A stretch of DNA of 12,980 nucleotides, taken from the NCBI GenBank assembly GCA_043763605.1, contig JAYULM010000233.1, forward strand, positions 1-12,980, written 5' to 3'. Source of the stretch: Armatimonadota bacterium (GTDB lineage: Bacteria > Armatimonadota > Armatimonadia > Armatimonadales > Armatimonadaceae). This document shows, piece by piece, positions 1-12,980 of this stretch (positions are counted from its first letter, which is position 1; each line of letters begins with the position of its first letter). The notes below the pieces were generated by a model that worked only from the letters and a program-made list of their open reading frames with translations, was not told where the DNA came from and made no database searches. The position numbers and the translations under genes were made by a program.

Positions 1-479
1 GCGCGATCAGGGACTTACAGCACCGGACGGACATTGTGCAGTCGTTCTTCCGAATGGCTGGTTTAGAAACTTAACGACGGATCAATAAGGATGAAGAACT
101 GAGATAGACAATCAACGCTGACGAGTAGGATGAAAGGCGGCTCGTCGAAAATACGGTCAATTCAAACTGACTTGTGTTGTCTATGCAGGATTTCGCGCCC
201 GCCGTACCCGGTTCATTCGCGGTAAAAATGTTTTCGTGGTCGGGATGATCTACCAGGCAAACCCCTTACACAACCGAAGCAAAATCGAAGATTTTTGAGA
301 GTTATAGCCAGGGCACTCATGCCCCGGTAACTCCGCCCCATCTACCGCGTCCTCAAGAATCCTCGTATCGTATACACGTGCGGCAATCCTCCGAGGCGCA
401 CACCGTGCTCGCCGCTCGCGACGCAATCCGCCACATATACGGGAACCCCGCCGCGCGTCCCGTGCGGCTGACCGAGTGC

Positions 480-887
480 CTAGTTCGCGTGCGTCACCGT
501 CCACCGCTTGCCGTCCGCCGACACGTGCTCCACATACGCGACGTGCCCATACGGGTTGCCGTCCCACGCGTCCAGCACCATCACGGAACCTGCGGTAGGG
601 GTGTCGGACCGCGTCGCGTTCGTCACCTTCTTCGTCCAGTGGCGGGCGTGCCTGCCGGAATCGGTGTCGAAGCGCAGCCACCAGCCGTCGTCCGCCGCGC
701 GAACACAGGCGTACCAGGTACATTCGCCTTTTGGGAGCGGGCGGCGCATCCAGGAAAGGTTCGCGTCACGCTCCGGCAGTACGCGGTTGCGCAACCGTTG
801 CCAGGCATTCGGGACCATTAGCAACGTCACCAGAACCAGCACCGCAAGCGATGCAGTACCCATCCCGACGGAACGCGACCATTTCAT
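480..887 (-). CDS. Small membrane-anchored CHAP-domain protein (cysteine/histidine-dependent amidohydrolase/peptidase, probable cell-wall amidase or peptidase)
   Basis: 135-aa ORF. N-terminal hydrophobic anchor (ASLAVLVLVTLLMVP). The segment GECTWYACVR carries the CHAP catalytic-Cys signature (C-T-W-[FY]). The downstream GHVAYVEHVSADG carries the conserved His segment. Stop TAG read from 482 to 480 on the minus strand. GC-rich coding composition contrasts with the flanking lower-GC DNA. Confidence 0.6.
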   Translation of the reverse strand: MKWSRSVGMGTASLAVLVLVTLLMVPNAWQRLRNRVLPERDANLSWMRRPLPKGECTWYACVRAADDGWWLRFDTDSGRHARHWTKKVTNATRSDTPTAGSVMVLDAWDGNPYGHVAYVEHVSADGKRWTVTHAN

Positions 888-1244
888 ACCGGTAGGACAC
901 GCGACAAGTGAGGGTAGTTACACTGGGGGTTCCGGAGTGTAAATCCACGCGCGCTGAGAACTGGGCGCACGAGTAATCAGGCGACAACTCTTCCCCTGCC
1001 CGGTTCTTGCCTCTCATTCACAGGTACGTGTGACGCATTTTAACTCGACTCAGTGTGCAGGCAAGATCGGAGTCAGCGTCAGGTAAACTTAACGCCATAA
1101 CGGGATAGCATACTGCGTTTAGAAGCCATCGTTCCCGCCATTCGAAAGAGTGTTGCGGGTGGATCGTGTCCTGTTCTCTGGGGCAGGTGAGGTTTTCCTG
1201 ATGACCATCGAAAGTACGAAAACATAACGCGGCAATCAACTGAC

Positions 1245-1280
1245 CGGGGGCGGGGCGCGACACCGTGCACCCCGCCCCCG
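1245..1280 (-). terminator. GC-rich hairpin downstream of the peroxidase gene. Candidate transcript 3'-end, terminator or stabilising stem-loop.
   Basis: 11-bp perfect stem cGGGGGCGGGG(1245-1255)/CCCCGCCCCCg(1270-1280) with a 14-nt loop, 49 bp downstream of the stop of the minus-strand gene 1329-3251. On the transcribed (minus) strand it is followed by gttatgttttcg, only a weak and interrupted U-tract. Assignment as an intrinsic terminator is therefore tentative. Confidence 0.35.
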
Positions 1281-1328
1281 AACAAACCACCCAACACCCC
1301 AACCGTTCAATCATCCGACACCCCCGAA

Positions 1329-3251
1329 TCACTTCACCAGCGGGTTCGTGAATTTCGGGTCGGCGGTCAGGGTGCCGTCGTTCAGGGTGCGCAGGAACGC
1401 CACCAGCGCATCGCGGTCCGCGACTGTGAGGGGCAGACGTTGCGGTTGCCCCTGTGGGTTTTTCAGGCGGTTGTCCAGAGCGGGACCGTTCTGTACGCCC
1501 CTGATGTAGTGGTCCACCGCCTGCTCCAGCGTCGCGAACCGACCGTCGTGCATGTAGGGACCGGTCAGCGCGACGTTTTTGAGCGACGGCGATTTGAAGA
1601 TGCGGGACTCGCCCGCGTCCAGACCGTTGCTGAGCGAGGTGGGGGCGAGGGCGAATGTGGGAGCCTGATGGCAGGAGTTGCAACCCGCGCCGCCCTGCCC
1701 CGGTCCGGTGGTGAACAACACCTTGCCGCGCTCTTCCTGCGCCGTATAGCCGGGAAATCGTGTTTCCAGACCCCGTTGCGGCAGGGCGGGGTTGAAGACG
1801 CGGGCGAACTCGGTATCGAAGCGGCTGTTTACCGAAACGATGCTACGTTCGTACTGCGCCAGTGCCCGCTGGATGCGGTCCTCGGTGATCGCCGGATCGC
1901 CGTACACCCAGCGGAACAGTTCGGGGTAGTACGGGAGTGTCCCCATCTTCGCCGTCACCGCGCCGAACCCGCCGTGCGCGGCGTCGAAGCCCATTTCGAC
2001 CTCGTTCTGGATCGGTTGGGTCGCCTGCGCTTCCACGCTTGCCGCCCGCTTGTCCCAGAACATCGCGCGCCCGGCGTAGAAGCGGAGATTCGCCAGACGC
2101 ATCGAGTGCGCGTCAGTGAACGCCGTCCCGTTGAAGCCCCGACTAAACCGGGCAGGGTCCACGAACCCGTTCGATTGCTGGTGGCAGGACGAGCAGGCGG
2201 TGGTGTCGTTGATGCTAAGCCGTTTGTCGAAGAAGAGCACCCTGCCCAGCGTCGCGCCCCGGTCCGTGACCGGGTTGTCAACCGGGGTGTTGTCCTGTTT
2301 GCGCACCGCGTTGTCGTAGTGCGCCGGGAACGCCGGGTTCGCGTAGTCCGGCAAGTTATTCACGTCGATATTCGTGTATTCGCGCACCCCGGCGAACGGG
2401 TCGGGCGTCGCGGTCGGAGTCGGCGAGGGAATCGGCGTCGCGGTCGGCGTAGGAGTGGGCGTCGGGAGAGGCGAGGGCGTCGGCGACGGCGCGGCGGAAA
2501 CTGTGAGCGGCAGGGTCGCGGTTTTGCCGGACTCGGTTTCCGTCACGGTGACGCTCGCCGTGCCGGGGGCGGTTCCGGTGACGGTCAGACTCGCGCCGCC
2601 GGGTACTACGGCGGCAACGGATGCGGGGGAGATCCCCCACCGCCACGTCGTCGCGCCGGTCAGGATCAGATTACCCGCCGCGTCGAGCGCACTCGCCGCG
2701 AACGTCGCCGTTTGCCCGACACCGACCCCGGACGCGGACTGTGTCAGCGCAAGGCGGTCGATAGTCGAGTTCATCGTAAGGTTCAGCGCGAACGTCTGCT
2801 CGGCGACGGCTTGCGCGATCTGTGTGCCGCTCGCCTGCGGCGGTTGGGCGTCGCCCGTCGCGTCGGCGTGTGCGGTCGCTGTGACAGTGAGCGCGCCGGG
2901 CGGTAGATTGTCGAACGCGGCACCGGTCGCCGGTCGCGCGATGACCTGACTGACACGAAACCCGGTGGCGTTCGTGATCGTGACGCGGACGCTGTTCGAC
3001 GCGATGGGGACCAGACGGGTGTCTTCGGAGCGCGCGGGCCATTCTATCGACACGGTCGCGCGGGCGGTGGGCGTGGCGACGGTGGGTGCGGCGGTAGTGG
3101 GGGCAACGACGACCGGTACGCCGCTCCCCGGATTACCGCCTCCACTCCCGCCGCCGCCGCAACCGGCGGCGATAAAGGCGATCCCGACGGGAAGCAGGAG
3201 CGCGGCGAGAACGGTGAGTGGGACCGGGATTTGTGCGGGGAATGTTTTCAT
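1329..3251 (-). CDS. Lipoprotein with N-terminal Big_2 (bacterial Ig-like) domain, Pro/Thr-rich linker and C-terminal di-haem cytochrome c peroxidase (CCP/MauG family) domain
   Basis: 640 aa. Signal peptide with lipobox IAAG|C followed by Gly/Ser-rich tether. Residues about 165-250 (LTQSASGVGVGQTATFAASALDAAGNLILTGATTWRW...SVTVTETESGKTATLPLTV) look like a Big_2 fold. PT linker PSPTPSPLPTPTPTPTATPIPSPTPTATP. Two haem-binding CxxCH motifs (CSSCH and CNSCH). Di-haem CCP-like blocks: GATLGRVLFFDKRLS upstream of the first motif, LPYYPELFRWVYGDPAITEDRIQRALAQYERS between motifs, and C-terminal YMHDGRFATLEQAVDHY ... DRDALVAFLRTLND. Confidence 0.8.
   Translation of the reverse strand: MKTFPAQIPVPLTVLAALLLPVGIAFIAAGCGGGGSGGGNPGSGVPVVVAPTTAAPTVATPTARATVSIEWPARSEDTRLVPIASNSVRVTITNATGFRVSQVIARPATGAAFDNLPPGALTVTATAHADATGDAQPPQASGTQIAQAVAEQTFALNLTMNSTIDRLALTQSASGVGVGQTATFAASALDAAGNLILTGATTWRWGISPASVAAVVPGGASLTVTGTAPGTASVTVTETESGKTATLPLTVSAAPSPTPSPLPTPTPTPTATPIPSPTPTATPDPFAGVREYTNIDVNNLPDYANPAFPAHYDNAVRKQDNTPVDNPVTDRGATLGRVLFFDKRLSINDTTACSSCHQQSNGFVDPARFSRGFNGTAFTDAHSMRLANLRFYAGRAMFWDKRAASVEAQATQPIQNEVEMGFDAAHGGFGAVTAKMGTLPYYPELFRWVYGDPAITEDRIQRALAQYERSIVSVNSRFDTEFARVFNPALPQRGLETRFPGYTAQEERGKVLFTTGPGQGGAGCNSCHQAPTFALAPTSLSNGLDAGESRIFKSPSLKNVALTGPYMHDGRFATLEQAVDHYIRGVQNGPALDNRLKNPQGQPQRLPLTVADRDALVAFLRTLNDGTLTADPKFTNPLVK
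2397..2492 (-). repeat. Low-complexity Pro/Thr/Ser linker-coding repeat inside the peroxidase gene
   Basis: DNA shows reiterated ggcgtcgg / gtcggcg units. Translation on the minus strand is (P-[TS])n, residues about 254-285 of the 640-aa protein. Typical flexible inter-domain linker, not a CRISPR or mobile repeat. Confidence 0.7.
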
Positions 3252-3297
3252 GGCTTTTCTTCGGGCAAACTCGTCTGTGTTGCGGCAACGATGCCGG

Positions 3298-3484
3298 GGG
3301 CGATGGTTCGGGCGTTGATCGGACGGTGAACCGTTCCGCTGGGAGCCTTCGGCTGTAGACGCTTCGCGTCAGGGAGTCGTTAGGCTGTCGCACGAACCGT
3401 CTGCCTCCGGTGACGCGAAGCGTCTACAGCCGAAGGCTCCCAGCGGAACGGTTCACCGTCCGATCAACGCCCGAACCATCGCCC
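3298..3484. repeat. Perfect inverted repeat: two 74-nt arms (3298-3371 and 3411-3484) separated by a 39-nt non-palindromic spacer. Giant hairpin/cruciform element in the intergenic region.
   Basis: I reverse-complemented arm 2 (tgacgcgaagcgtctacagccgaaggctcccagcggaacggttcaccgtccgatcaacgcccgaaccatcgccc). It is identical over 74/74 nt to arm 1 (gggcgatggttcgggcgttgatcggacggtgaaccgttccgctgggagccttcggctgtagacgcttcgcgtca). Spacer is gggagtcgttaggctgtcgcacgaaccgtctgcctccgg. The element lies in the 322-bp gap between the stop of the deacetylase gene (3574) and the start of the peroxidase gene (3251). Confidence 0.95.
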
Positions 3485-3573
3485 GTGTAGCAGGCTATCG
3501 CCCGATACTGAAGAGTTGCTGAAGGCGGCACGCTATCTTCGCCGAAGGGGAAAATGCCGGTCGCGAAGACGGC

Positions 3574-4581
3574 TCAGAGGAGCGCGAATCGGTAGCCGCG
3601 ATTGCGCAGTCCGGCGAGAAGGTCGGGCAGGGCGGCGCGGGTGTCGGCGACGGCGGCGTGCAGGGCGATCACCGCACCGGGGCGGGCGGCGAACAGGACG
3701 CGGCGCGTGATCTCGCGTGCGCCGGGGCGGGAATGGTCGTAGGGGACGACGACCGGGCGGCGGGGCGACGCGGGCGTGGTGCCGTCGGCAGTGCGCAGTT
3801 CGGTGGTCCCCGGCGGGCGGTACAGGGTCGGGCGGACGCCGGTTATCGTGCGCAAAAGATCGGCAGAGCGGGCGAGACCGGGGCGGCTTCCGTCGTGGTC
3901 CCAGGAGTGCATTTGCAGGCGGTGTCCTTCGTGCGCGGCGCGGCGGGCGAGGTTCGCGCCGACGCGGTGGGTCAGGTGTTCCGCGATGCAGAAAAACGTC
4001 GCGGGGGCGGCTTCCCGGCGCAGGATGTCCAATAATCCTTCATCCGGCGACCGTTCTACGCCGGAAGGCGGAAGCGTCGGGAAGTCGTCGAACGTCAGGA
4101 AGATGTCGCCGGAAAAATCGGACGCCGCCGGGGGGCGTTCGGTAGCGAGGCGGCGCAGGCGGGATTCGAGTTCGTCGGTGCGTACGATCCCCTGCCGCGT
4201 CCAGTCGATCATACCGTGCGCGTCCACGACCACGGTCCACGGTACCGCGCGCAGCCCCAGCCCCGCGCTGACCCGCCCGCCGGCATCAAGGAGAACGCTT
4301 TCTTCCGCCGCGCCGCCGCCACCGGGGAACCGTTCCGCCCAGCGTCCGTCCACGCTGATCGTCCGGTAGTCAATCGGTAGCCCGCGCAGGTTGTGCCGCA
4401 CGACGGCGAGGCGGCGGCTCTGCTCGCGCCATGTGTCGCACCACAGAGCGCAGAAGGACAGCACGGAAACCTGCCCCGGTCGCCAGGTTTGCGGGCGCGC
4501 GCCGCCGTACGGAAGCAGGGTGAACGCGGCGACGCGGTCGCCGGGACCGGACACGCGCGGGGGCGTCGTCGGCGGTTTCAC
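3574..4581 (-). CDS. Fusion protein: N-terminal thioredoxin-like (TlpA/redoxin-like, degenerate CxxC) domain + C-terminal NodB-type polysaccharide deacetylase domain
   Basis: 335 aa. N-terminal VAAFTLLPYGG...GQVSVLSFCALWCDTWREQ resembles the redoxin/TlpA motif (F.a.WC..C) but reads C-D-T-W (single Cys). C-terminal half has NodB motifs in canonical order: TFDDF (MT1 Asp-Asp), HSWDH (MT2 His-His), YRPPGTT (MT3 RxPxG), IALHAAV (MT5 LxH). Start is GTG at 4581-4579, overlapping the TGA stop of the upstream A2M gene (GTGA), which implies translational coupling. No obvious signal peptide. Confidence 0.7.
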   Translation of the reverse strand: MKPPTTPPRVSGPGDRVAAFTLLPYGGARPQTWRPGQVSVLSFCALWCDTWREQSRRLAVVRHNLRGLPIDYRTISVDGRWAERFPGGGGAAEESVLLDAGGRVSAGLGLRAVPWTVVVDAHGMIDWTRQGIVRTDELESRLRRLATERPPAASDFSGDIFLTFDDFPTLPPSGVERSPDEGLLDILRREAAPATFFCIAEHLTHRVGANLARRAAHEGHRLQMHSWDHDGSRPGLARSADLLRTITGVRPTLYRPPGTTELRTADGTTPASPRRPVVVPYDHSRPGAREITRRVLFAARPGAVIALHAAVADTRAALPDLLAGLRNRGYRFALL

Positions 4582-7500
4582 GGCGTTTTGTCCTCTTTCG
4601 GGGCATCACGAACGTCCAACACCTGCGCCGCGCTCCCGCCGCGCACCGCCGGGCGGCGGATCAACTCGCCGGTCGCGGGCAGTGCCATCAACATGCCCTC
4701 CGACTCGGACCGCAGGTAATAGCGGAACGTGACCGGCTCCGAACCGTTCACCGGCAGATAGTGGAACAGGGCACCGTCGCGCACCTCCTCGCGGGCGTTC
4801 CCGCCGCGCTCGGAGTCCACGAACTCGAACCCCGCCGGGAGCGGTTCGATCACCTTCACCGCGTCCGCCGTTTCGTTGGGCCAGACCACCACGGTGACAC
4901 GTACCGCCGCCCCGGGGCGCAGGCGCGATGCGGGCAACACTTCGCCCCAGACGCCGTACTCGTTCTGCGACTCGAACCGGCGCAGGACGCGCATCCCGGC
5001 GGCGATCTCGGCTGTCTGCGCGCGGTAGACCAGGGCTTCAGCGGTAACGAACGCTTCCCCCGCCGTGCTCCGGGCGCGCTTCAGCGTGACCGCGTTCGCG
5101 CCGTCCTTCAACAGGTCGCGGGGCACGTTCGCCGTCAGCGGGGCGATGCTTTCGGTGCCGGGGGCGCGTTTCTCCCAGGGCACCGCGACGCCGTTGACGG
5201 TCAGCGTGAAATCGTCGGCGGACGGCATTTCGCTCCCGGTGCCGTTACCACTGTTGCCGTTGCCCTGCGCACGGCTGTATAGGAGCAGGGCGCGGATGAT
5301 GTCGGCTTCCTCGGAAGGCGTCGCTTCCGGTCTGCCCTCGCCGTCGCCGCCGTCCGGGGGGAGCAACAGCCAGCGGGCAAGCTTGGTACGGGCGGGTGCG
5401 TCGTTGCCGTCATTCAGCGCGACCAGCGTTTCCAGGGCGCGCGCCGTGGTTTCGATCACGCCCGCCCGTTGCCCCGGTCGCTCCCCGGCGGGGATGTAAG
5501 CGGTTTCCGGTCCGGCGACGCTCTGGGAGGTGATCGCCCGGGTGAATTGGCGCGCCCGGTCTTTGTTTCCGGCTTCCAGAAACCCCTTCGCCAGAATCAG
5601 CGTCGCCGCCGGGGACAGCGTCCCGGCGTTGCGGTCCGCGACTTCCGCAAGGAACGGCGCGCTCGCCGGGTCGAGCGGGGCGAGTACCGCCGCCAGATAC
5701 GCCCGCTCCTCCCACAAGCCGGTTTCGCGGTACAGCGTGTTGCCGCCGCCGATCCCGCGTTTGAGCAGGTTTTCGGGGAACGGGACGCTTGCGGGCAGGA
5801 TTCCGGGGGCGCGTTTCAGGGCGACGAGTGCCCGCATGACGCGCGCGGTGACACGGGCGTCGGCGGGGGCGTCGTCCCACCAGCCCCACGCGCCACCCGG
5901 CGTTTGACCGCGCGATAGCAGGGCGAGGGCGTCGCGCAATGCCGCCGAGTCGGCGGGCGGGGCACCGGGCGTCGCCGCGACTAACAGCAAGTCCGCCGCC
6001 GCCAGCGTCCCGTATCCCGAATTTTTATACAGCCGCGCGGCGGCAGACCGCGCCGTGGCTCCGGCTCCGCCGCGCACCGACACCCGGAACTCGGTCGCCG
6101 GTTCGATGCGCCCGGCGGGCAGATCGAGCGACACCGTGGTCTCGTCGGCGGTGCCCGACACCGCCGCCCCGACCCGCGCGGTGGTCGCGACCCCGCGCGG
6201 GCGCACCGGCACCGAAACGCGGACGCGGTCCGACAGGTCAGCGAGCGTTTCGCCCGGTCCCGGTTCCGTGGTCAGGGTTCCTTCCAGCACCGCCCGCCCG
6301 TCCGGGGCGGGGATGGCGTCTGCCGACACGCGCCACTCCACCGTCGCCTCGCCCTTCGCCGGGACAGTTACCGACTGCGCCGCGTTCTCGCCCGGCGCGG
6401 GCTGTACGCCGGTCGCGGTCAGGGAAACGCGGAACGTCCGTTCGCGGTCGGTGCGGTTGCTCACGGTACCGATCAGGGTCAGGCGGTCGCCCTGTACGAA
6501 CTGTCGCGGCGTCGCGAGCCGGAGCATCACCGGGCGCGACGATGTGACGCGGCTCAGGGTATGCCCGACCGCCGTGGAACCGGTGACGCCGAACGCGGTT
6601 GCACGCCACGCCGTCAGGTTTCCGGGCAGTTCCACGGTGGCGACGGCGTTCCCGTCTGAACCGGTGACGAGGCGGGCGTTCCAGAATGCCGTGTCGAGGA
6701 ACTTTTGCCGCACCGGGGCGACGCCGGTCGGCTCCGCGTTCTGGTACGCCCCGCCGCTGACCTCCTCCGGCGCGGACGCGGCGGTTTGTGTGTGGTTTTC
6801 GCGGTACCCCCAGAACGCCCCATAAATGTCGGGCGTGGCGTCGGGGCGCACGGCGAAGATGGCGTCATCGATCACCGCCAGCGCGACCTCGGCTCCGGCG
6901 ACCGGTGCCCCCGTTTTGCCGTCACGCGCCCGCACCGTGTAGAGCACCCGGTCGCCGGGGCGGTAGTCGTTCCGGTCCGGCGTCACCGTCAGCGCGAGGC
7001 GGCGGGAGCGGTCGGGGACCGGGAGTGGTACGCCGCCGGTCAGGAGGCGAGTATAGCGCGTCTTGCTCGCCGGGTTTTCGCGCACCGCCACCCACTGCGA
7101 CGCGGAAACGTGCGCGTTGGGAGCCATCCCGGCGGTCGCAGGCAACTTCCACGTGTACGCCGATTTTCCCGGCGGCACGACTTTGTAGGCGAACAGCGCG
7201 TTGCCCTCGACGGTGAGCAGCACGGGACGTTCGGGCTTGTTCGCGGCGAGAAACACGCTGACGGTGTCGCCGGGCTGGTACGACGGCGCGCCCAGCCGGA
7301 CGCGCACACTCGGCTCCTCCCGCTCCGCCGCCACTTTCGTGTCGGGCGCGGACACATAAAACGCGGAAACGGCGACGGCGATTCGTTTCGCGCCGTCGGT
7401 GATTGTCGCGCGCAGTTCGACCTCGCCCTCCTTCGCGGCGGGCACGGTCGCGGTCGCCTTGCCGCTCGCCGGGACCACGGCGGCGGACTGGCTGAGCACG

Positions 7501-9224
7501 CGCCAGGAAGTGGCACCGGTCTTTTCGTCGTAGACGCGTTGCCGTGTCACCAAGCTCACCCGACCGCCGACCGGGCGACCGTCCAGGTCGGACAGGCGCA
7601 ACTCCACCGGCACGACGCCGTTGAGCGGCGCGGTATAGACTTTCGTACGGATGCCGAGGCGTAGCGACGCGGCGTACACGGGCACCGAGCCGGTCGCCGT
7701 GACCTCGCGCCGTTGCCCGTCGGTAACGGTGCAGGAGATCGCGTAGGAAGCGTCGCCGATGTCGCCGCGCGTCGGAAAGGTGATGTTCGCGCGCCCTTCG
7801 GCGTCTGTGGTCACGGTATCGTCGGCGACCACGTCATCGGCGGCGTACGTATCGCGGGCGTACAGGTTTCCGTCGCCGCTGGCAAACCAGGCGGAATCGG
7901 CGGCGTCGCTACCGTTGCCGTCGCCGCTCGCGAACGCGCCGTAGTATGGGGTGGCACTGCGCCGGATCACGTAGCGCACCGTCGCACCGGGGAGCGGCGC
8001 GCCGAAGTAGTAGGTCGCCTGTACCGCGAACGTCCCGGTTTCGCCGGACAGGTACCGCTTTTTCGCGGGCGTGACCGTCGCCAGAAAGTCCGGCTTGCGG
8101 TATTCGGCGACCGTGAACGTCGCGTACGCCTTTTGCCCGTCGCGGGCGGTCAACACCAGCGAGTACGGTCCCAGTGCCCCCTGGGCGGGAATCGCGAACG
8201 ACCCGGCGACCGTGCCGAGCGGACTGCTGGTCTCCGTGGTTTGCTGCTGGACGTTGTCGCGGCTGTCGCGCACCTCGGCGGTCACGGGAACGTTCGCTTC
8301 GGTTGCGTAGCCGGTCCCTTTCGTGCGGCGCAGGATCGCCCGGTACGACACCGTCGCGCCGGGGCGGTACACCGGTCGGTCGGTCTGCAGGTGACTGACC
8401 AGGCGGTTGTCCGGGTCGTTACTGCCGAGCGAGAGCGCGGCGATGTCGGCGGGTGTGCCCGGCGTTTCCCGCGTCACGATCACGGTCTGTGTGGTGTCCG
8501 GGCGCAGTTTCACCCGGTAGATGCCTTCGGAATCAGTGCGCCCTTCGGCACTGGATTTGCCGCTCGCGCGGTCCCACAGCGTCACCTTCGCACCGGTAAC
8601 AGGTGCGCCCGTGCCGTGATCCGTCACCCACGCCAGCAACGAATCGGGTGTCCGTTTGAGCACCACGGCGAGGTTCGTAACATTGACCACCGCCCAATCC
8701 TTCTTGCCGTCGCCGCCGTTCGCGACCAGCAGGTACGTTCCCGGCGGAAGTACCGGCAGGTTGAACTGCTTGCTCCGATAAATGTCGGGCTGTTCGCGCG
8801 ACGATTTCAACTTCGGGTCGCCGACCGTGACCGGGAAAACGCGGGCAGGCTTTCCGGGCGGCAACGCGTCCGGCATCGATCCGCTGTTGCCACCGTCGTT
8901 GCCGTCGCTGTTGTTCTTTTCGCGACGGAGCATCCACCGCGCGGCATCGATCTTGTAGGCGGAAACCGTGATGTGCGCCAGGTTGCGCGTATTGACATAC
9001 AGGCGAATGGCGGGACCGGGAGCCACATCACGCTTCGTGGACAGGCGCACCTCGGTTACAGGCGACGCGACCGGCGGCGGCGGTGCCGGCTTCTGCTGCG
9101 GGGACGGGTCCGCCGCGACGCCGCCGAGGAAAAAGATTCCGAGCGTCAGGGCGAGAGCGGCGACGACACCGAAAATCATCAGGATTCGCGGCAAAAAAGG
9201 TGCTTTGGAGAGGATCGACATAGT
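4578..9224 (-). CDS. Alpha-2-macroglobulin family protein, YfaS/MagD-like size class, lacking the CxEQ thioester, with N-terminal membrane anchor or signal peptide
   Basis: The six-frame ORF runs 4578-9611. Its first 129 codons are Arg-rich, overlap the AMMECR1 gene in another frame and look non-coding. The likely start is Met130 (ATG at 9224), giving MSILSKAPFLPRILMIFGVVAALALTLGIFFLGG (hydrophobic anchor, no lipobox Cys) and about 1547 aa. A2M hallmarks: FLDTAFWNARLVTGSDGNAVATVELPGNLTAWRATAFGVT (the ...TWR... block preceding the A2M domain) followed by RPVMLRLATPRQFVQGDRLTLIGTVSNRTD (the PF00207-like ...fv.l..P.svvrGe.v.l...v.Ny segment). Many beta-rich MG-like repeats upstream and a C-terminal receptor-binding-like domain. 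At the position where GCGEQ is expected the sequence reads YKNSGYGTLAAADL (no Cys-x-Glu-Gln). No CxEQ occurs anywhere in the protein. Confidence 0.85.
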   Translation of the reverse strand, partial: TMSILSKAPFLPRILMIFGVVAALALTLGIFFLGGVAADPSPQQKPAPPPPVASPVTEVRLSTKRDVAPGPAIRLYVNTRNLAHITVSAYKIDAARWMLRREKNNSDGNDGGNSGSMPDALPPGKPARVFPVTVGDPKLKSSREQPDIYRSKQFNLPVLPPGTYLLVANGGDGKKDWAVVNVTNLAVVLKRTPDSLLAWVTDHGTGAPVTGAKVTLWDRASGKSSAEGRTDSEGIYRVKLRPDTTQTVIVTRETPGTPADIAALSLGSNDPDNRLVSHLQTDRPVYRPGATVSYRAILRRTKGTGYATEANVPVTAEVRDSRDNVQQQTTETSSPLGTVAGSFAIPAQGALGPYSLVLTARDGQKAYATFTVAEYRKPDFLATVTPAKKRYLSGETGTFAVQATYYFGAPLPGATVRYVIRRSATPYYGAFASGDGNGSDAADSAWFASGDGNLYARDTYAADDVVADDTVTTDAEGRANITFPTRGDIGDASYAISCTVTDGQRREVTATGSVPVYAASLRLGIRTKVYTAPLNGVVPVELRLSDLDGRPVGGRVSLVTRQRVYDEKTGATSWRVLSQSAAVVPASGKATATVPAAKEGEVELRATITDGAKRIAVAVSAFYVSAPDTKVAAEREEPSVRVRLGAPSYQPGDTVSVFLAANKPERPVLLTVEGNALFAYKVVPPGKSAYTWKLPATAGMAPNAHVSASQWVAVRENPASKTRYTRLLTGGVPLPVPDRSRRLALTVTPDRNDYRPGDRVLYTVRARDGKTGAPVAGAEVALAVIDDAIFAVRPDATPDIYGAFWGYRENHTQTAASAPEEVSGGAYQNAEPTGVAPVRQKFLDTAFWNARLVTGSDGNAVATVELPGNLTAWRATAFGVTGSTAVGHTLSRVTSSRPVMLRLATPRQFVQGDRLTLIGTVSNRTDRERTFRVSLTATGVQPAPGENAAQSVTVPAKGEATVEWRVSADAIPAPDGRAVLEGTLTTEPGPGETLADLSDRVRVSVPVRPRGVATTARVGAAVSGTADETTVSLDLPAGRIEPATEFRVSVRGGAGATARSAAARLYKNSGYGTLAAADLLLVAATPGAPPADSAALRDALALLSRGQTPGGAWGWWDDAPADARVTARVMRALVALKRAPGILPASVPFPENLLKRGIGGGNTLYRETGLWEERAYLAAVLAPLDPASAPFLAEVADRNAGTLSPAATLILAKGFLEAGNKDRARQFTRAITSQSVAGPETAYIPAGERPGQRAGVIETTARALETLVALNDGNDAPARTKLARWLLLPPDGGDGEGRPEATPSEEADIIRALLLYSRAQGNGNSGNGTGSEMPSADDFTLTVNGVAVPWEKRAPGTESIAPLTANVPRDLLKDGANAVTLKRARSTAGEAFVTAEALVYRAQTAEIAAGMRVLRRFESQNEYGVWGEVLPASRLRPGAAVRVTVVVWPNETADAVKVIEPLPAGFEFVDSERGGNAREEVRDGALFHYLPVNGSEPVTFRYYLRSESEGMLMALPATGELIRRPAVRGGSAAQVLDVRDAPKEDKTP

Positions 9225-9253
9225 TGGTGAGTTCCAGTGTTCGTCGGTCGCGG

Positions 9254-9892
9254 TCAGCCGCGAAACCGCCGGGCGACGATGCGCCACAGGCGGCAGGAGG
9301 AATCGTTCGGTACGCCCGCTTTTTTGTACGCCCAGCGGAGTCGGGTCGCCGGGTCGCGCCCTTCGTACGGAAGTACCACGCCGGTGCGGCTCCCGGATTC
9401 GAGCGCGAGTCCGTCGGCGGGCGTGAGCGTCAGGGCTTCCCCGCGCCCGACCGGTTCGAGTCGTTCGATCACCGTCACCGTCACCCGGAACCGGGACAGG
9501 TCGGCGGGCGTCAGCGGGCAGTAGCGCGGGTCGGCGGTGGCGGCGGAGCGCGCGGCGGTCTGCACCTCTGCGCGCAGGGTGGCGAAGCGCGGACGCAGTG
9601 TCCCCCGGCACCCGATCACGGTTCCGTCCCGCTCAATGGTCACGAACACGCCCCGCGCGGGCGTCTCCGGCGACACCGCATCGTGCGCAGGCGCGGATAC
9701 GGAACCAGTGACGGCATTGCGAACCGCATCCCGGGCGAGCGCGATCAGCGCGGCGTCCGGCGTGGGCAGGGGCGAGGCGTTCTGCGCGCGCACCCCGGTA
9801 TCCGCCGCCGCGAGGACGGAAGCAGTAGTTAGAAGCCCGGTGACGATTACGACGCCTCGGAATCGGGCTCTATTCTTGCCATGCGGTTTCAT
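9254..9892 (-). CDS. AMMECR1-domain protein with N-terminal secretion signal
   Basis: 212 aa. N-terminus MKPHGKNRARFRGVVIVTGLLTTASVLAAADTG has a basic n-region plus hydrophobic h-region, a signal-peptide look. AMMECR1 blocks: RGVFVTIERDGTVIGCRGTL (compare the family's .aFVTl....LRGCIG block, with R in place of I here), DPRYCPLTPADLSRFRVTVTVIERLEPV (DPRF.Pl...El..l.ieVSvLs block), DGLALESGSRTGVVLPYEGRD and RLRWAYKKAGVP (C-terminal blocks). 29 bp upstream of the A2M start, same strand. Confidence 0.7.
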   Translation of the reverse strand: MKPHGKNRARFRGVVIVTGLLTTASVLAAADTGVRAQNASPLPTPDAALIALARDAVRNAVTGSVSAPAHDAVSPETPARGVFVTIERDGTVIGCRGTLRPRFATLRAEVQTAARSAATADPRYCPLTPADLSRFRVTVTVIERLEPVGRGEALTLTPADGLALESGSRTGVVLPYEGRDPATRLRWAYKKAGVPNDSSCRLWRIVARRFRG

Positions 9893-10142
9893 TGGCGACA
9901 GTTTAACACATGACTAACGCTGTAGTCAATAGGGGCGTATGGATATTTTCTGGTTTCGATTGAGCATAGCCGAACGAGATGATTGTGGACTGGTTCCACG
10001 CGATCCGCCTCCGATCTCATATCGACGAGTGCCCCCGGTCCAATCGTAACACCGAGCTCCCCACAATTCCGAAAAAATAATTTATCGCGATGATGCCACC
10101 TGCGAAAAGTCGGCGGGTCTGACCTTTTGGAGAACCAATAGG
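9893..10142. promoter_or_regulatory. Divergent intergenic region: lower-GC, should carry promoters for the minus-strand AMMECR1-A2M-deacetylase operon and the plus-strand NfeD-flotillin operon
   Basis: 250 bp without an ORF, visibly AT-richer (for example gaaaaaataatttatcgcgatgatg). Flanked by divergently oriented start codons at 9892 (minus) and 10143 (plus). GGAG at 10129-10132 sits 10 nt upstream of ATG 10143. I could not call -35/-10 boxes confidently. Confidence 0.4.
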
Positions 10143-10877
10143 ATGACGGGTTCGATCTATTTACAGTGGCATTATCTTGCTTTCATAGCACCGATGGCGG
10201 CATCGGCAACCCTGCTGATCCTGTCGGGCATGCGGACCGGCAAACATCGATCACACCAGCGCGGTGGACACATGGCGCGATCCGCCGGGAGCGCGAGAAG
10301 CGTCAGGCACGCATCCCCCCCCGCCAAACACGCGGTTCGGACCACATCCGGGGCAAAACGAAATGGCACCACTCCGGAAGCCGCGAACACCCACGGTGTC
10401 AGCGAGTTTTTTTTCGCGGTTACGGGATTCAATCGATTGTCGCCGCTGTTACTCGCACAGATGTTCTTGTTATATGGCGGTCTGGCAGGCTTCTGGGCTA
10501 ACCGGCTACTACTCCCGAACATCGATACCCCCACGCTCGCACAATGGCTGCCCTGCCTGGGAATCGCAATCGGCGTGGGCACTCTGGGAGCACGCTTATC
10601 CGGCGAATTAATCGCCCGCCTGATGCCGCAAGACGCTTCGTCGGTCACGCGGAGCGATGGGCTGATCGGGCTTACCGGCAAAGTGGTCTTCCCGATCACC
10701 CAAACCAGTGGGCGTATCCACGTTTACGATACGTTCGGCACACTGCACGATCAGACGTGTCGTCTGGCACCCGGACAAGCCCCGATAGATCGGGGCGGTT
10801 TCGCGTTCATTTCCGACCGCGACCCGTCCGGGCATTTTTTAGTTGAGGAAGCGGCGGAGCCAATCCGACTTCGCTGA
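10143..10877 (+). CDS. NfeD-like membrane protein (membrane helices + C-terminal OB-fold beta-barrel), partner of the downstream flotillin
   Basis: 244 aa. Hydrophobic helices YLAFIAPMAASATLLILSGM, LSPLLLAQMFLLYGGLAGFWANRLLL, LAQWLPCLGIAIGVGTLGARL. C-terminal DGLIGLTGKVVFPITQTSGRIHVYDTFGTLHDQTCRLAPGQAPIDRGGFAFISDRDPSGHFLVEE matches the NfeD/YuaF OB-fold pattern (G..G.v....sGrv.v..e.w.a.s...i..G..v.V...dg..L.V). Stop TGA 10875-10877 lies immediately upstream of the flotillin gene. The true start could be an internal Met (for example Met44 or Met107). The basic low-complexity loop between helix 1 and 2 is atypical. Confidence 0.6.
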   Translation: MTGSIYLQWHYLAFIAPMAASATLLILSGMRTGKHRSHQRGGHMARSAGSARSVRHASPPAKHAVRTTSGAKRNGTTPEAANTHGVSEFFFAVTGFNRLSPLLLAQMFLLYGGLAGFWANRLLLPNIDTPTLAQWLPCLGIAIGVGTLGARLSGELIARLMPQDASSVTRSDGLIGLTGKVVFPITQTSGRIHVYDTFGTLHDQTCRLAPGQAPIDRGGFAFISDRDPSGHFLVEEAAEPIRLR

Positions 10878-10913
10878 TGGTTGGAGGTGAATAGCACTAA
10901 GGAGGCTATGGAT

Positions 10914-12941
10914 ATGGGATTCTTAATCCTGTTGTTTGGGGCGGTCGTTATCGTCGTCGGCATGCTGGGAATCGTCCCCGGAACAGGGGGCGTGGTACTC
11001 ACCGTCATCGGGGCGGCAATGATGGTCGCGGGCGTTCCTGCCGGACTCATGACGTTCTACCGGCGCACCAGCGCGGACCAGGCGTTTGTGCGGACGGGGC
11101 ACGGCGGGAGTCTGGTCGTGCTCGACAACGGCGCACTGGTCATTCCGGGGTTGCACCGGTTACTGGAAATCAACCTGCGCACCATGAAACTCGGGGTAAA
11201 CCCGCGCGGCCAGAACGCGCTCATCACGCGCGACAACTTGCGGGCGAACGTCCTCGCGCAGTTCTACATTCGGGTCCAGGCGGACTCCGAGCATATCTTA
11301 AACGCCGCCCGGTCGTTGGGGGAGTCGTCGGTGAACGCCGAGGCGGTGGAGGGGCTGGTATCGGAGAAGCTGGTTTCCGCCCTGCGTGCCATCGCGTCGC
11401 AGATGGACCTGTTCGAGATCCATACCAAGCGCGACGAATTCGCCGAGCGGGTCAAAGAGCATGTCAAGTCGGACCTGGAATCGAACGGTCTGTTGTTAGA
11501 ATCGGTCACGATATCAGAACTGGACCAGACCGACCCCGCCGACCTGTCTGACGACAACGTCTTCGACGCACAGGGGAAACGTAAGATCACCGAGATCACG
11601 GCGGCGGCGGCGGTCGAGCGGAACGCGTTGGAGCGGAACGCGGAGCAGGCACGAAAACTCAAGGACGTCGAAACCCGCCAGCAGATACTGGGACTGGAAC
11701 GGATGCAGGCGGAATCCGAAGCGCAACAGGCGACCGAAATCGCCAAAGTCCGCGCCGACAAGGAGCGCGAGTCGCAGGAGGCGGTGATCACCCAGCAACG
11801 GCAGGTCGAACTCGCCAAGATCGAAAAAGACAAACAACTCCAAGCGCAGGAGATCGGTCGCCAGCAAGCGGTCGAAACGCTCCGGGTGCAACAGGAACAG
11901 GCGGTGCAGGCGGCGGGCATCGAAAAAGAAAAGGCGGTCAGTCTCGCCGGACTGATGAAGCAGATCGCTGTCGCCGAGCAGGAGACGGCACGGGCGAAGG
12001 CGGAAGAAGCCACGCTGGTCGCGTCCGCCGAGCGTGAACGTGCCAGCCAGCAAGTCACCACGGTCACGCAACTCGCGGAAGCGGAACGCGACGCTAACAA
12101 GAAACTGATCGCGTCGCGCCAGGAGATCGAGCAGGCGAAACTGCGCCAGCAGACCACCGCCGATGTCGAGGCGTACTCGCGGATCAAGGAGGCGGACGCC
12201 GAACGCGAATCGTCGGAAATGCAGGCGCAGGCGAAACTTCAACTTGCCGAAGCCGAAGCACACTCGCGGGAAATGATCGCGAAAGGCGAACGCGCCCAGC
12301 AGATGGTCGCGGTGGAAGTCGCCCGCGAACAGGTGGACGTGGAGCAGGCGCAGGTTGCGGTCGAGCGACAACAACTGGAAAACCGGCAGCAGTTCGCCGA
12401 AGCCGGTATCCATTTAGAGATACAGCGGCTGAGCATTCAGGCGAACCGCGATGTTCAGATCGAATTCGCGAAATCGCTGGCGAACTTCCTGGCGTCGGGG
12501 CGTATGACGCTGTACGGCACGCCCGAAACGGCGACCATGATGCTTGACAACATGGCGAAAGGGTTCGGTTTGCGGTCCATGGTCGAGGGCTTCGTGAACG
12601 GATCGGGCGGAGACGGAACAGGGAAAATTCCGGCGACTAACGGCACGACGGCGACCGCTGAACTGGTGCCGGCCACCAACGGCAACGGCACCCACGCCTC
12701 GGGCGACGCTGTCGGGGCGTTGCTCAGTCAGGTCGGCGGTCTGTTGCAACCGGCAATCACGCGTCTGACCAACGGTTCGGCAAATAGCAAGCCTGCGCCG
12801 TCGGCGGACGAGGTCGCGCGACGGCTCGCGGACGACCCGGCACTACTCGCCGCGCTCCGAAACGCCCTCGCAACGGCGCAAACAGATGAGGAAGAAGAGG
12901 CGACGCCCATTAAAGAAGTGGCGGGAATGACGCGCAAATAA
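10914..12941 (+). CDS. Flotillin-like SPFH/band-7 protein (YqiK/FloA type) with a long Glu/Ala/Gln-rich coiled coil and a Gly/Thr/Asn-rich C-terminal tail
   Basis: The ORF opens at TTG 10881, but a strong Shine-Dalgarno AAGGAGG at 10899-10905 lies 8 nt upstream of ATG 10914 (MGFLILLFGAVVIVVGMLGIV..., N-terminal membrane hairpin). SPFH core: ADQAFVRTGHGGSLVVLDNGALVIPGLHRLLEINLRTMKLGVNPRGQNALITRDNLRANVLAQFYIRV. Then about 300 aa of EA/Q heptad-like repeats (flotillin coiled-coil domain). C-terminal tail is NGTTATAELVPATNGNGTHASGD... Confidence 0.85.
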   Translation: MGFLILLFGAVVIVVGMLGIVPGTGGVVLTVIGAAMMVAGVPAGLMTFYRRTSADQAFVRTGHGGSLVVLDNGALVIPGLHRLLEINLRTMKLGVNPRGQNALITRDNLRANVLAQFYIRVQADSEHILNAARSLGESSVNAEAVEGLVSEKLVSALRAIASQMDLFEIHTKRDEFAERVKEHVKSDLESNGLLLESVTISELDQTDPADLSDDNVFDAQGKRKITEITAAAAVERNALERNAEQARKLKDVETRQQILGLERMQAESEAQQATEIAKVRADKERESQEAVITQQRQVELAKIEKDKQLQAQEIGRQQAVETLRVQQEQAVQAAGIEKEKAVSLAGLMKQIAVAEQETARAKAEEATLVASAERERASQQVTTVTQLAEAERDANKKLIASRQEIEQAKLRQQTTADVEAYSRIKEADAERESSEMQAQAKLQLAEAEAHSREMIAKGERAQQMVAVEVAREQVDVEQAQVAVERQQLENRQQFAEAGIHLEIQRLSIQANRDVQIEFAKSLANFLASGRMTLYGTPETATMMLDNMAKGFGLRSMVEGFVNGSGGDGTGKIPATNGTTATAELVPATNGNGTHASGDAVGALLSQVGGLLQPAITRLTNGSANSKPAPSADEVARRLADDPALLAALRNALATAQTDEEEEATPIKEVAGMTRK

Positions 12942-12980
12942 CCGCGTCCCACACAGTCGCGCCGCGCGGGTAACTCCCCC

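Follow-up and report, generated by a model that had tools for sequence, protein, structure and literature searches.

A conserved gene trio of Armatimonadota joins an alpha-2-macroglobulin to AMMECR1 and monothiol thioredoxin-like partners

Bacterial alpha-2-macroglobulins (A2Ms) have been divided into two types by gene context, those that carry a thioester and are encoded with the penicillin-binding protein PBP1C, and those that lack the thioester and are encoded in the mag/yfa operon (PMC5764988). MagD of Pseudomonas aeruginosa traps protease non-covalently without a thioester and needs its operon partner MagB for stability; Mag partners bind and stabilise MagD, and A2M and PBP1C have been proposed to form a 'trap and repair' pair (PMC5764988). 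Here we describe an A2M gene in different company. It was found on a 12,980-nucleotide stretch of an Armatimonadota bacterium (assembly GCA_043763605.1, contig JAYULM010000233.1, positions 1 to 12,980; hereafter the window, meaning the whole of that stretch), where it encodes an A2M without thioester and lies between the gene of an AMMECR1-domain protein and that of a thioredoxin-like domain fused to a CE4 (NodB) polysaccharide-deacetylase domain (Trx::NodB). The trio represents a third gene context for bacterial A2Ms and is phylum-wide. No earlier description of it was found: a full-text literature search returned nothing linking AMMECR1 with bacterial A2M, or Armatimonadota with A2M, in keeping with a preliminary description of this DNA that had considered the association new.

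The trio was read as three open reading frames (ORFs) on the minus strand, arranged head to tail in the order AMMECR1, A2M, Trx::NodB and located where they had first been placed: (i) an AMMECR1-domain protein of 212 aa (9254..9892), identified by Pfam (PF01871) and AlphaFold/Foldseek and identical to the public gene call; (ii) an A2M-family protein of 1547 aa without thioester, identified by its Pfam domains (4578..9221); and (iii) the thioredoxin-like::CE4 fusion of 335 aa, which has a GTG start and no signal peptide (3574..4581). Pfam, profile searches and AlphaFold models agreed on the domains that had been proposed for these three co-directional genes. The A2M start is the ATG at 9221, in agreement with the public gene call in the source contig (L001), and the spacer between the AMMECR1 stop and this ATG (9222..9253, minus strand) is therefore 32 bp rather than the 29 bp first reported. 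At the second junction the GTG start (4581-4579) overlaps the TGA stop (4580-4578), and the GTGA overlap at 4578-4581 was exactly as described before.

Two scans define the distribution of the trio. The first was based on AMMECR1, with one peptide pattern searched in one genome per GTDB species and followed up by tblastn, and yielded 14 loci, 13 of which are from metagenome-assembled genomes (MAGs) of Armatimonadota and one of which is labelled 'uncultured archaeon'. The A2M gene adjoins AMMECR1 in all 14, at 28-43% identity over the aligned length, and Trx::NodB directly follows A2M in 11; the exceptions are L011, which ends inside A2M, L018, which has no adjacent third gene, and L022, in which the thioredoxin-like gene lies 2.5 kb downstream. 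The second scan was based on the thioredoxin-like motif, with 80 metagenome loci fetched by the peptide [FYL]WCDTWK alone. Where at least 5.6 kb of upstream sequence was available (n = 34), A2M was directly upstream in 34 and AMMECR1 was found in 33; where at least 400 bp was available (n = 69), the end of an A2M was found in 67. These counts bear out the co-occurrence of AMMECR1 and the third gene with A2M across genomes, a point that the preliminary description had set aside for checking. The same trio was found at ~50 Armatimonadota loci with protein identities of 27-45% and unrelated flanks, as in the neighbourhoods of L002-L004, L008, L023-L025, L106 and L109, and the order AMMECR1, A2M, thioredoxin-like(::NodB) was kept with A2M identity down to ~27-40%. 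The AMMECR1 homologues carry Armatimonadota labels (Fimbriimonas, Abditibacterium and others), and the WCDTW thioredoxin-like family, as well as the AMMECR1 clade where its context could be read, was almost never found away from an A2M gene. That the genes are adjacent by chance, or merely co-regulated with no functional link, is scarcely credible with order and linkage kept to this extent, and is effectively refuted by the synteny. Overall, these comparisons indicate that the trio is almost certainly a conserved, dedicated module, the invariant core of which, as read from the alignments, is AMMECR1, A2M and a monothiol WCDTW thioredoxin-like protein.

Two database labels encountered in the scans were irregular. 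The locus labelled 'uncultured archaeon' (L015, CAWHLK010000057.1) carries a typical Armatimonadota trio, and the label looks wrong. The nearest relative of the window (P0002/P0212, GCA_014381035.1) is given as Fibrella sp. in one source and under a name beginning 'Arm' in another.

The gene junctions and the surroundings of the trio were compared across the fetched loci. The commonest junction between A2M and the third gene was a 4-nt ATGA/GTGA overlap (~30 of 78 loci), and the junction between AMMECR1 and A2M was also frequently a 4-nt overlap in relatives (L004, L008, L025 and L106). An order variant, thioester-bearing A2M followed by Trx::NodB and then AMMECR1, was detected at L072/L073 and L085/L087 (type iii), where the third gene starts with an in-frame GTG 6 nt past the A2M TGA. 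Recoding by -1 frameshift or stop read-through, which would fuse Trx::NodB to A2M, was rejected, as the junctions inspected (those of the window, of L002, L024 and L109, and of type iii) share no conserved slippery heptamer. In the window clade the genes overlap by 4 nt or 1 nt, and ordinary translational coupling is preferred over recoding because the same ATGA/GTGA overlap is the commonest in signal-peptide-bearing orthologues. All-versus-all ORF clustering over ~90 loci revealed no fourth conserved gene; the largest flanking cluster was present in 6 loci, and a further module member (CcdA/DsbD, a protease, Memo or a radical-SAM protein) was rejected on this basis.

The A2M protein displayed the Pfam domains of the family in canonical order, with bMG3 (8421-8678), MG2 (8106-8390), A2M_BRD (6849-7298), A2M (6417-6689) and bMG10 (4656-4994), and its sequence matched human A2M (2e-17) and YfhM (3.5e-16) in the PDB. 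Over ~1500 aa it aligned colinearly with A2Ms from the same trio that do bear a thioester (27% identity, E-value 3e-96). The thioester is absent, as first noted: the protein has a single cysteine, residue 497, no CxEQ, and the sequence GYGTLAAAD (5991..6017, minus strand) at the position where, in MAFFT alignments, relatives have YPYGC[AT]EQT and E. coli YfhM has GCLEQ. This degenerate site is followed by a deletion of ~16 residues that is specific to the clade and not found in E. coli YfaS. The TED-like alpha/alpha-toroid region (approximately residues 1040-1400; 5022..6104, minus strand) is too diverged to match Pfam TED_complement; it is colinear with relatives that match PF07678, such as L023, L106 and the second A2M of L018, and a profile of the region built from 10 orthologues gave weak matches to squalene-cyclase C-domains (8e-5) and to the C3 TED (3e-3). 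At its N-terminus the protein bears a hydrophobic segment of 27 residues (residues 12-38, RILMIFGVVAALALTLGIFFLGGVAAD; 9108..9188, minus strand) with no lipobox cysteine, the first 496 residues being free of cysteine altogether. This segment is a probable signal anchor; the A2M orthologues have ordinary, cleavable-looking signal peptides.

A separate observation on L018 (899-7730 on the minus strand and 16046-17158 on the plus strand), from a Fimbriimonadaceae genome, concerns its second A2M and the genes around it. This A2M is thioester-bearing (FPYGCVEQT) and is encoded at a distance of 4 kb from the trio. Its neighbours are a VanW-like gene and a 476-aa gene of no known family, with an HtrA-like protease downstream.

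In comparison with MagD/YfaS, the window A2M is similar in being a large (~1500 aa) envelope protein that lacks CxEQ and is encoded in an operon with small partners, and by BLAST the MG region of the window A2M was closer to YfaS (E-value 3e-33) than to YfhM (2e-12). The likeness to MagD/YfaS drawn in the preliminary description holds for size and for the missing thioester, but it does not extend to demonstrated orthology: the window A2M and YfaS share 24% identity over 779 aa, about half of the protein, and the degenerate site of YfaS is EPWGGVINT with no clade deletion, whereas the window A2M has GYGTLAAAD and the deletion. Orthology to YfaS is thus unlikely. The partners also differ, with AMMECR1 and a monothiol thioredoxin-like protein in the window in place of YfaP, YfaQ, YfaT and YfaA, the counterparts of the Mag partner proteins. 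The absence of the known A2M partner genes had been reported before and was upheld, in that tblastn with E. coli PbpC returned nothing in the window or the other fetched loci and tblastn with E. coli YfaP, YfaQ, YfaT and YfaA returned nothing in the window. Across all fetched loci a YfaP-like match was found only in L025, where a YfaP-like (DUF2135) gene at 1304-2041 overlaps the AMMECR1 start of a thioester-bearing trio (36% identity to E. coli YfaP, E-value 3e-19). This gene was the only link found from the trio to the yfa/mag operon.

Like YfhM/ECAM and the Salmonella A2M, the trio A2M has the MG/BRD/TED/MG10 architecture, the TED of the window protein being a putative one, and types ii and iii of the trio keep YPYGC[AT]EQT, as YfhM keeps YPYGCLEQT. 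Anchoring to the inner membrane facing the periplasm would also be shared, by lipid in ECAM and, as predicted, by the hydrophobic N-terminus in the window A2M, and the pairing of an A2M with a cell-wall enzyme in ECAM/pbpC superficially resembles the presence of the NodB fusion. Unlike YfhM, the window A2M has no thioester, no lipobox and no pbpC, and its similarity to YfhM is confined to residues 639-1022 at 23% identity. When the thioester was followed across the trio, it was found in 25 loci (types ii and iii) and was absent from 16 of 16 type i loci, the architectural type of the window; L092 represents a separate, further lineage in which it was lost, and the orthologous A2M of L016 has no cysteine at all. 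In a rough neighbour-joining distance tree with one YfaS and one YfhM representative, the thioester-less clade was monophyletic, with E. coli YfaS beside it and both far from YfhM. The thioester is ancestral, or at least widespread, in the trio A2M family, and the thioester-less state of the window is derived; most sister branches keep YPYGC[AT]EQT. Since the degenerate site and the adjacent deletion are unlike YfaS, and the thioester persists in sister clades that have this trio, the loss was probably independent of that in YfaS.

What the thioester-less A2M does can be approached through MagD. The protein would be the effector of the module, fixed by its N-terminal hydrophobic anchor to the cytoplasmic membrane, on the outer side, and would trap proteases sterically after cleavage of the bait, as MagD does. 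By this analogy, we lean slightly towards a function as a non-covalent protease trap. An alternative is that the A2M of the thioester-less clade no longer acts as an inhibitor and has become a large protein of the envelope or surface, made of MG domains, with a structural or ligand-binding role in which its partners serve it. Consistent with this alternative, the TED is too diverged for Pfam, the thioester site was erased together with the deletion, and no conservation is recognisable in the first ~180 residues or in the bait region. However, the full MG/BRD/A2M/MG10 architecture is retained and aligns colinearly with that of relatives that have the thioester in this gene context, and MagD itself traps proteases without a thioester; we consider this alternative improbable.

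The N-terminal half of the third protein has a TlpA/ResA/CcmG-like thioredoxin fold (residues 14-147; 4141..4542, minus strand). It matched the DsbE model TIGR00385 below cutoff (E-value 8e-7), and was related to the TlpA/ResA-type thioredoxin 3kcm both by profile comparison with the PDB (profile A3, E-value 7e-17) and by Foldseek (TM 0.77). In place of W-C-x-x-C the domain has W-C-D-T-W (residues 47-51; 4429..4443, minus strand), which aligns with WCPPC of 3kcm and puts a tryptophan at the position of the resolving, second cysteine. The motif WCDTW(K/R) was invariant in 15 of 15 aligned orthologues, and WC[DNE]TW was present in 120 of the 120 top database matches. With the second cysteine absent, the normal dithiol reductase cycle is impossible. 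The redox fold of the preliminary description is therefore retained as a TlpA-like fold, but without ordinary CxxC redox activity. More than half of the loci (L022, L023, L106 and ~45 metagenome loci) encode a stand-alone thioredoxin-like protein of 160-180 aa with a signal peptide and no NodB. Among the TlpA-like thioredoxins, the trio proteins make up a new monothiol (C-D-T-W) branch. Like the thioredoxin-like domains of TlpA, ResA, CcmG, Etrx and PilB (fused to MsrA/B), the trio domain matches in fold and profile; unlike TlpA, ResA and CcmG, the window domain has W-C-D-T-W, no signal peptide and a fused CE4 domain. A protein of the TlpA/ResA/CcmG/Etrx type typically serves a single partner enzyme, and in some cases the two are fused.

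Two further points concern the surroundings of this motif. The window clade has F-C-A-L-W-C (4438-4452, Trx::NodB residues 44-48), in which the invariant cysteine is preceded, four residues earlier, by an additional one (CxxxC); this additional cysteine is frequent in NodB-fused forms and is not family-wide, other members having FVAFWC or FWAFWC. The peroxiredoxin motif is PxxxTxxC, and a peroxiredoxin-like reading of the monothiol domain was rejected as the threonine at -3 is absent (A-F-W-C).

The C-terminal half of the fusion is a CE4/NodB polysaccharide-deacetylase domain (residues 159-333; 3583..4107, minus strand), identified by Pfam (Polysacc_deac_1, 54.9 bits against a cutoff of 23.1), by alignment to the CE4 structure 7y51 and by Foldseek, with matches to 7ax7, PdaC and PgdA. 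AlphaFold modelled the fusion as a TlpA-like fold plus a CE4 fold (pLDDT 90, pTM 0.81), and among PDB entries searched with Foldseek none spanned both domains. Alignment to 7y51 revealed the CE4 motifs to be intact: TFDD (4084-4095), HSWDH (3895-3909), YRPPG (3808-3822) and LH (3652-3663), all on the minus strand. The catalytic and metal-binding motifs (TFDD, HxxxH, RxP and LxH) were also invariant in alignment A5, and the window domain is probably an active deacetylase. It shares TFDD, HSxxH, RPP, LxH and the fold with CE4/NodB enzymes such as PgdA, PdaC and acetylxylan esterases. Its substrate class could not be assigned from the NCBIfam equivalog models, all of which scored far below cutoff for CE4 (for the PgdA equivalogs, 36 bits at best against a cutoff of 400). 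Unlike typical CE4 deacetylases, the window domain is probably cytoplasmic and is dispensable within its gene family. NodB is fused in some lineages only, and the His-His and Arg-Pro motifs are deleted in L003/L009, L008 and L013. The alignments present NodB as an addition confined to certain lineages and since decayed in several relatives, and it cannot be the reason why the genes stay together, because it is absent from the majority of trios and motif-less in several others.

Signal peptides, judged by hydrophobicity and alignment, were compared among the partner proteins. In most orthologous trios all three proteins bear one, as do 73 of the 78 distinct third-gene products, and A2M has an N-terminal signal or anchor in every case. 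Trx::NodB of the window has none: between the preceding stop codon and the GTG there is room for 8 codons only, the N-terminus lacks a hydrophobic segment, and the thioredoxin fold follows almost directly. The same absence was found in L024 and L002 and in 15 protein clusters down to 53% identity, including one from an Armatimonas sp. MAG, and is taken as a stable trait rather than an assembly error because these relatives all keep the WCDTW and CE4 motifs. AMMECR1 in turn lacks a signal peptide in Armatimonas sp. L109 and in the order-variant type iii loci L072/73 and L085/87, and in the latter both partners are signal-less. Without a signal peptide on the window Trx::NodB, deacetylation of mature peptidoglycan for lysozyme resistance, the role suggested in the preliminary description, is unlikely in this lineage, and a cytoplasmic precursor is the more likely CE4 substrate. 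The lability of these signals argues against three independent periplasmic enzymes and would be easier to reconcile with partners whose target is the A2M chain, or some common substrate reachable from either side.

These observations bear on a reading close to the one first proposed, in which the three gene products are parallel envelope-protection enzymes, with the A2M as a trap, NodB deacetylating peptidoglycan and thereby conferring lysozyme resistance, and a redox or other activity beside them, analogous to A2M with PBP1C. The A2M-PBP1C pairing is indeed a precedent (PMC5764988), the CE4 motifs are complete and resemble the peptidoglycan deacetylases PdaC, PgdA and Bc1960 about as well as they resemble xylan esterases, and export of all three proteins is usual among orthologues. 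But a core that lacks NodB, with a stand-alone thioredoxin-like protein in many relatives, does not agree with such parallel activities, nor do the low PgdA equivalog score, the monothiol nature of the thioredoxin-like domain and the signal-less Trx::NodB of the window and 14 further related clusters. That the AMMECR1 clade and the WCDTW family are almost obligately linked to A2M points to dependence instead, and we regard three parallel enzymes as decidedly unlikely.

The first gene product belongs to a universally conserved family whose biochemistry is not known and whose human member is a disease gene. The 212-aa window protein matched PF01871 at 88 bits against a cutoff of 25, and its AlphaFold model (pLDDT 87, built on 24 homologues) superposed best in Foldseek on the AMMECR1 protein PH0010 (1vaj; TM 0.67/0.70, E-value 4e-14), with further AMMECR1 matches to 1zq7, at a marginally lower E-value than 1vaj, and to 1wsc. 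Residues 1-31 (MKPHGKNRARFRGVVIVTGLLTTASVLAAAD; 9800..9892, minus strand) form an extension that is basic and then hydrophobic, and residues 1-40 were modelled at pLDDT ~50. The signal peptide attributed to this protein at first is supported to the extent that its N-terminus is signal-peptide-like by hydrophobicity and alignment. A hydrophobic N-terminal extension was found in 48 of 54 distinct AMMECR1 orthologues of the trio and not in the canonical, Memo-linked AMMECR1 P0075. The family's invariant cysteine, Cys95, lies in a G-C-R-G motif (codon at 9608..9610, minus strand; alignments A1 and A2) and, within VIGCRGT, was invariant in 26 of 26 aligned sequences. The catalytic-looking residues are kept in the trio clade, which has LP[WY]EG where the canonical proteins have LPQV, together with a conserved C-terminal RFRG, and which accounts for 51 of 8762 family clusters (under 1%) at E-value <= 1e-30.

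The AmmeMemoRadiSam system is the closest described setting for this protein, and the trio AMMECR1 shares with its AMMECR1 the fold and the invariant Cys, Asp-x-Arg and Leu-Pro motifs. Apart from the motif changes given above, it differs as follows: (i) the window protein falls below the cutoff of TIGR04335, AmmeMemoRadiSam system protein A (80.4 bits against 99); (ii) it has no Memo or radical-SAM neighbours, such genes being absent from the window and from the source contig, a 26-kb metagenome scaffold, whereas a Memo gene adjoins the outgroup P0075; and (iii) it usually has a predicted N-terminal signal peptide. A further parallel comes from the S-layer operon of Pyrobaculum/Thermoproteus (Thermoproteales), which is reported to encode an Ig-like membrane protein together with AMMECR1 and a thioredoxin-like-fold protein (bioRxiv 10.64898/2026.08.21.746120). 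This operon may be an independent recurrence of the pairing of AMMECR1 with a thioredoxin-like protein beside a secreted beta-sandwich protein, a parallel that is a loose one.

The two partners could be related to A2M in more than one way. By analogy with MagA, MagB and MagF for MagD, AMMECR1 and the monothiol thioredoxin-like domain would be accessory factors for the maturation, stabilisation or regulation of A2M; that they serve A2M in this manner, rather than as free-standing defence enzymes, is in our judgment an evenly balanced proposition. Alternatively, they may work as a pair of enzymes on the A2M chain, which they would modify covalently or mature before or after export, so that A2M would be their substrate. 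This alternative would account for partners that switch compartment between lineages while A2M stays exported, and it is consistent with translational coupling at both junctions, with partners that hardly ever occur without A2M and with the conserved, catalytic-looking residues of AMMECR1. On the other hand, no conserved candidate modification site was identified in A2M, the AMMECR1 family has no known chemistry, and in the window one partner seems to be exported and the other not. Moreover, maturation related to the thioester cannot be the shared role because the partners persist beside A2Ms that have lost the thioester or even all cysteines. We consider a role of A2M as substrate unlikely.

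A chemical link between the two partners was also considered. AMMECR1 Cys95 and thioredoxin-like Cys48 are the only invariant cysteines in the module, and a C-x-x-W thioredoxin is built like a substrate-trapping mutant; single-cysteine chemistry is proposed on these two grounds. Each partner would have the other as its target, or both would share a substrate, for example through a mixed disulfide that guards or controls the active-site cysteine of AMMECR1. Such a pairing of Cys95 with Cys48 is a tentative idea, which we hold to be rather doubtful. A bolder version, in which AMMECR1 and the WCDTW protein are the two components of an enzyme system with A2M-family proteins as its targets, working by single-cysteine chemistry (modification, cross-linking or controlled activation), is quite unlikely.

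Taken together, the best explanation overall, to which we assign a probability of roughly 0.5, is that of a self-contained, putatively co-transcribed three-gene module built around A2M, in which a membrane-anchored, non-covalent trap would be attended by two dedicated accessory proteins. The CE4 domain would be a later addition, which in the window keeps all of its catalytic and metal-binding motifs. Several points weigh against this explanation: (i) protease trapping, complex formation and co-transcription enter it from comparison and prediction; (ii) the TED region is highly diverged, and inhibitor function may possibly have been lost; (iii) a strictly periplasmic complex does not explain the labile signals of partners that stand beside an always-exported A2M; (iv) the apparent export of the window AMMECR1 but not of Trx::NodB argues against direct contact between Cys95 and Cys48 in this lineage; and (v) the trio has so far been seen only in Armatimonadota, a restriction that is read from the labels of named matches and from scans limited to one peptide pattern each.

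The domain assignments are ordinary, and the interest of the trio lies in a near-obligate, phylum-wide linkage and in the constraint that this places on the biochemistry of AMMECR1. For the A2Ms, a classification by thioester misses this organisation because the same partners accompany thioester-bearing and thioester-less proteins. AMMECR1 gains a tight and simple association, with two fixed partners, often extracytoplasmic and free of Memo and radical-SAM proteins, and hypotheses on its chemistry become directly testable with three recombinant proteins. Many AMMECR1 members of the trio appear to be extracytoplasmic, where SAM, ATP and nucleic acid are not present; if this is true, a protein rather than a nucleotide substrate would be expected. 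Should the two-component enzyme reading hold, the trio would reveal the long-sought activity of the AMMECR1 family.

Signals for expression were sought around the trio. A promoter-like sequence, TTGACT-18 nt-TAAACT with a TG extension (9900..9929, minus strand), was the sole sigma-70-like site in 3200-10200 by consensus match (shuffle mean 0.3) and ends 7 nt before the AMMECR1 ATG, with no Shine-Dalgarno sequence visible ahead of that ATG. The spacing suggests a leaderless or near-leaderless transcript, and AMMECR1 may be translated from leaderless mRNA. No terminator-like sites above shuffle expectation were found within the trio. A regulatory RNA was rejected, as an Rfam scan of the 250-bp leader gave zero matches, and an anti-phage defence annotation was rejected for want of a PADLOC match. 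Between the end of Trx::NodB and the start of the cytochrome c peroxidase gene lies a perfect 74-nt inverted repeat (3298-3371 and 3411-3484, 39-nt spacer) with a predicted hairpin of approximately -184 kcal/mol; it occurs in none of the other fetched loci and may be either a genuine element (a strong terminator or hairpin) or an artefact of assembly.

Pfam analysis of the neighbouring genes of the window identified CCP_MauG and Band_7. The di-haem cytochrome c peroxidase downstream and the Band_7 pair upstream were rejected as module members, as they are kept beside the trio in no relative. The peroxidase (1329-3251, minus strand; 640 aa, CCP_MauG E-value 1e-46) carries a signal that resembles those of lipoproteins (…IAAGC), and its N-terminal region is long and rich in Pro/Thr. 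The upstream pair is divergent from the trio and consists of a membrane protein of 244 aa that matched neither Pfam nor NCBIfam (10143-10877, plus strand) and, 3 bp after it, a Band_7/flotillin-like protein of 686 aa whose tail is a long coiled coil (10881-12941, plus strand), an arrangement that may resemble the NfeD-flotillin pair.

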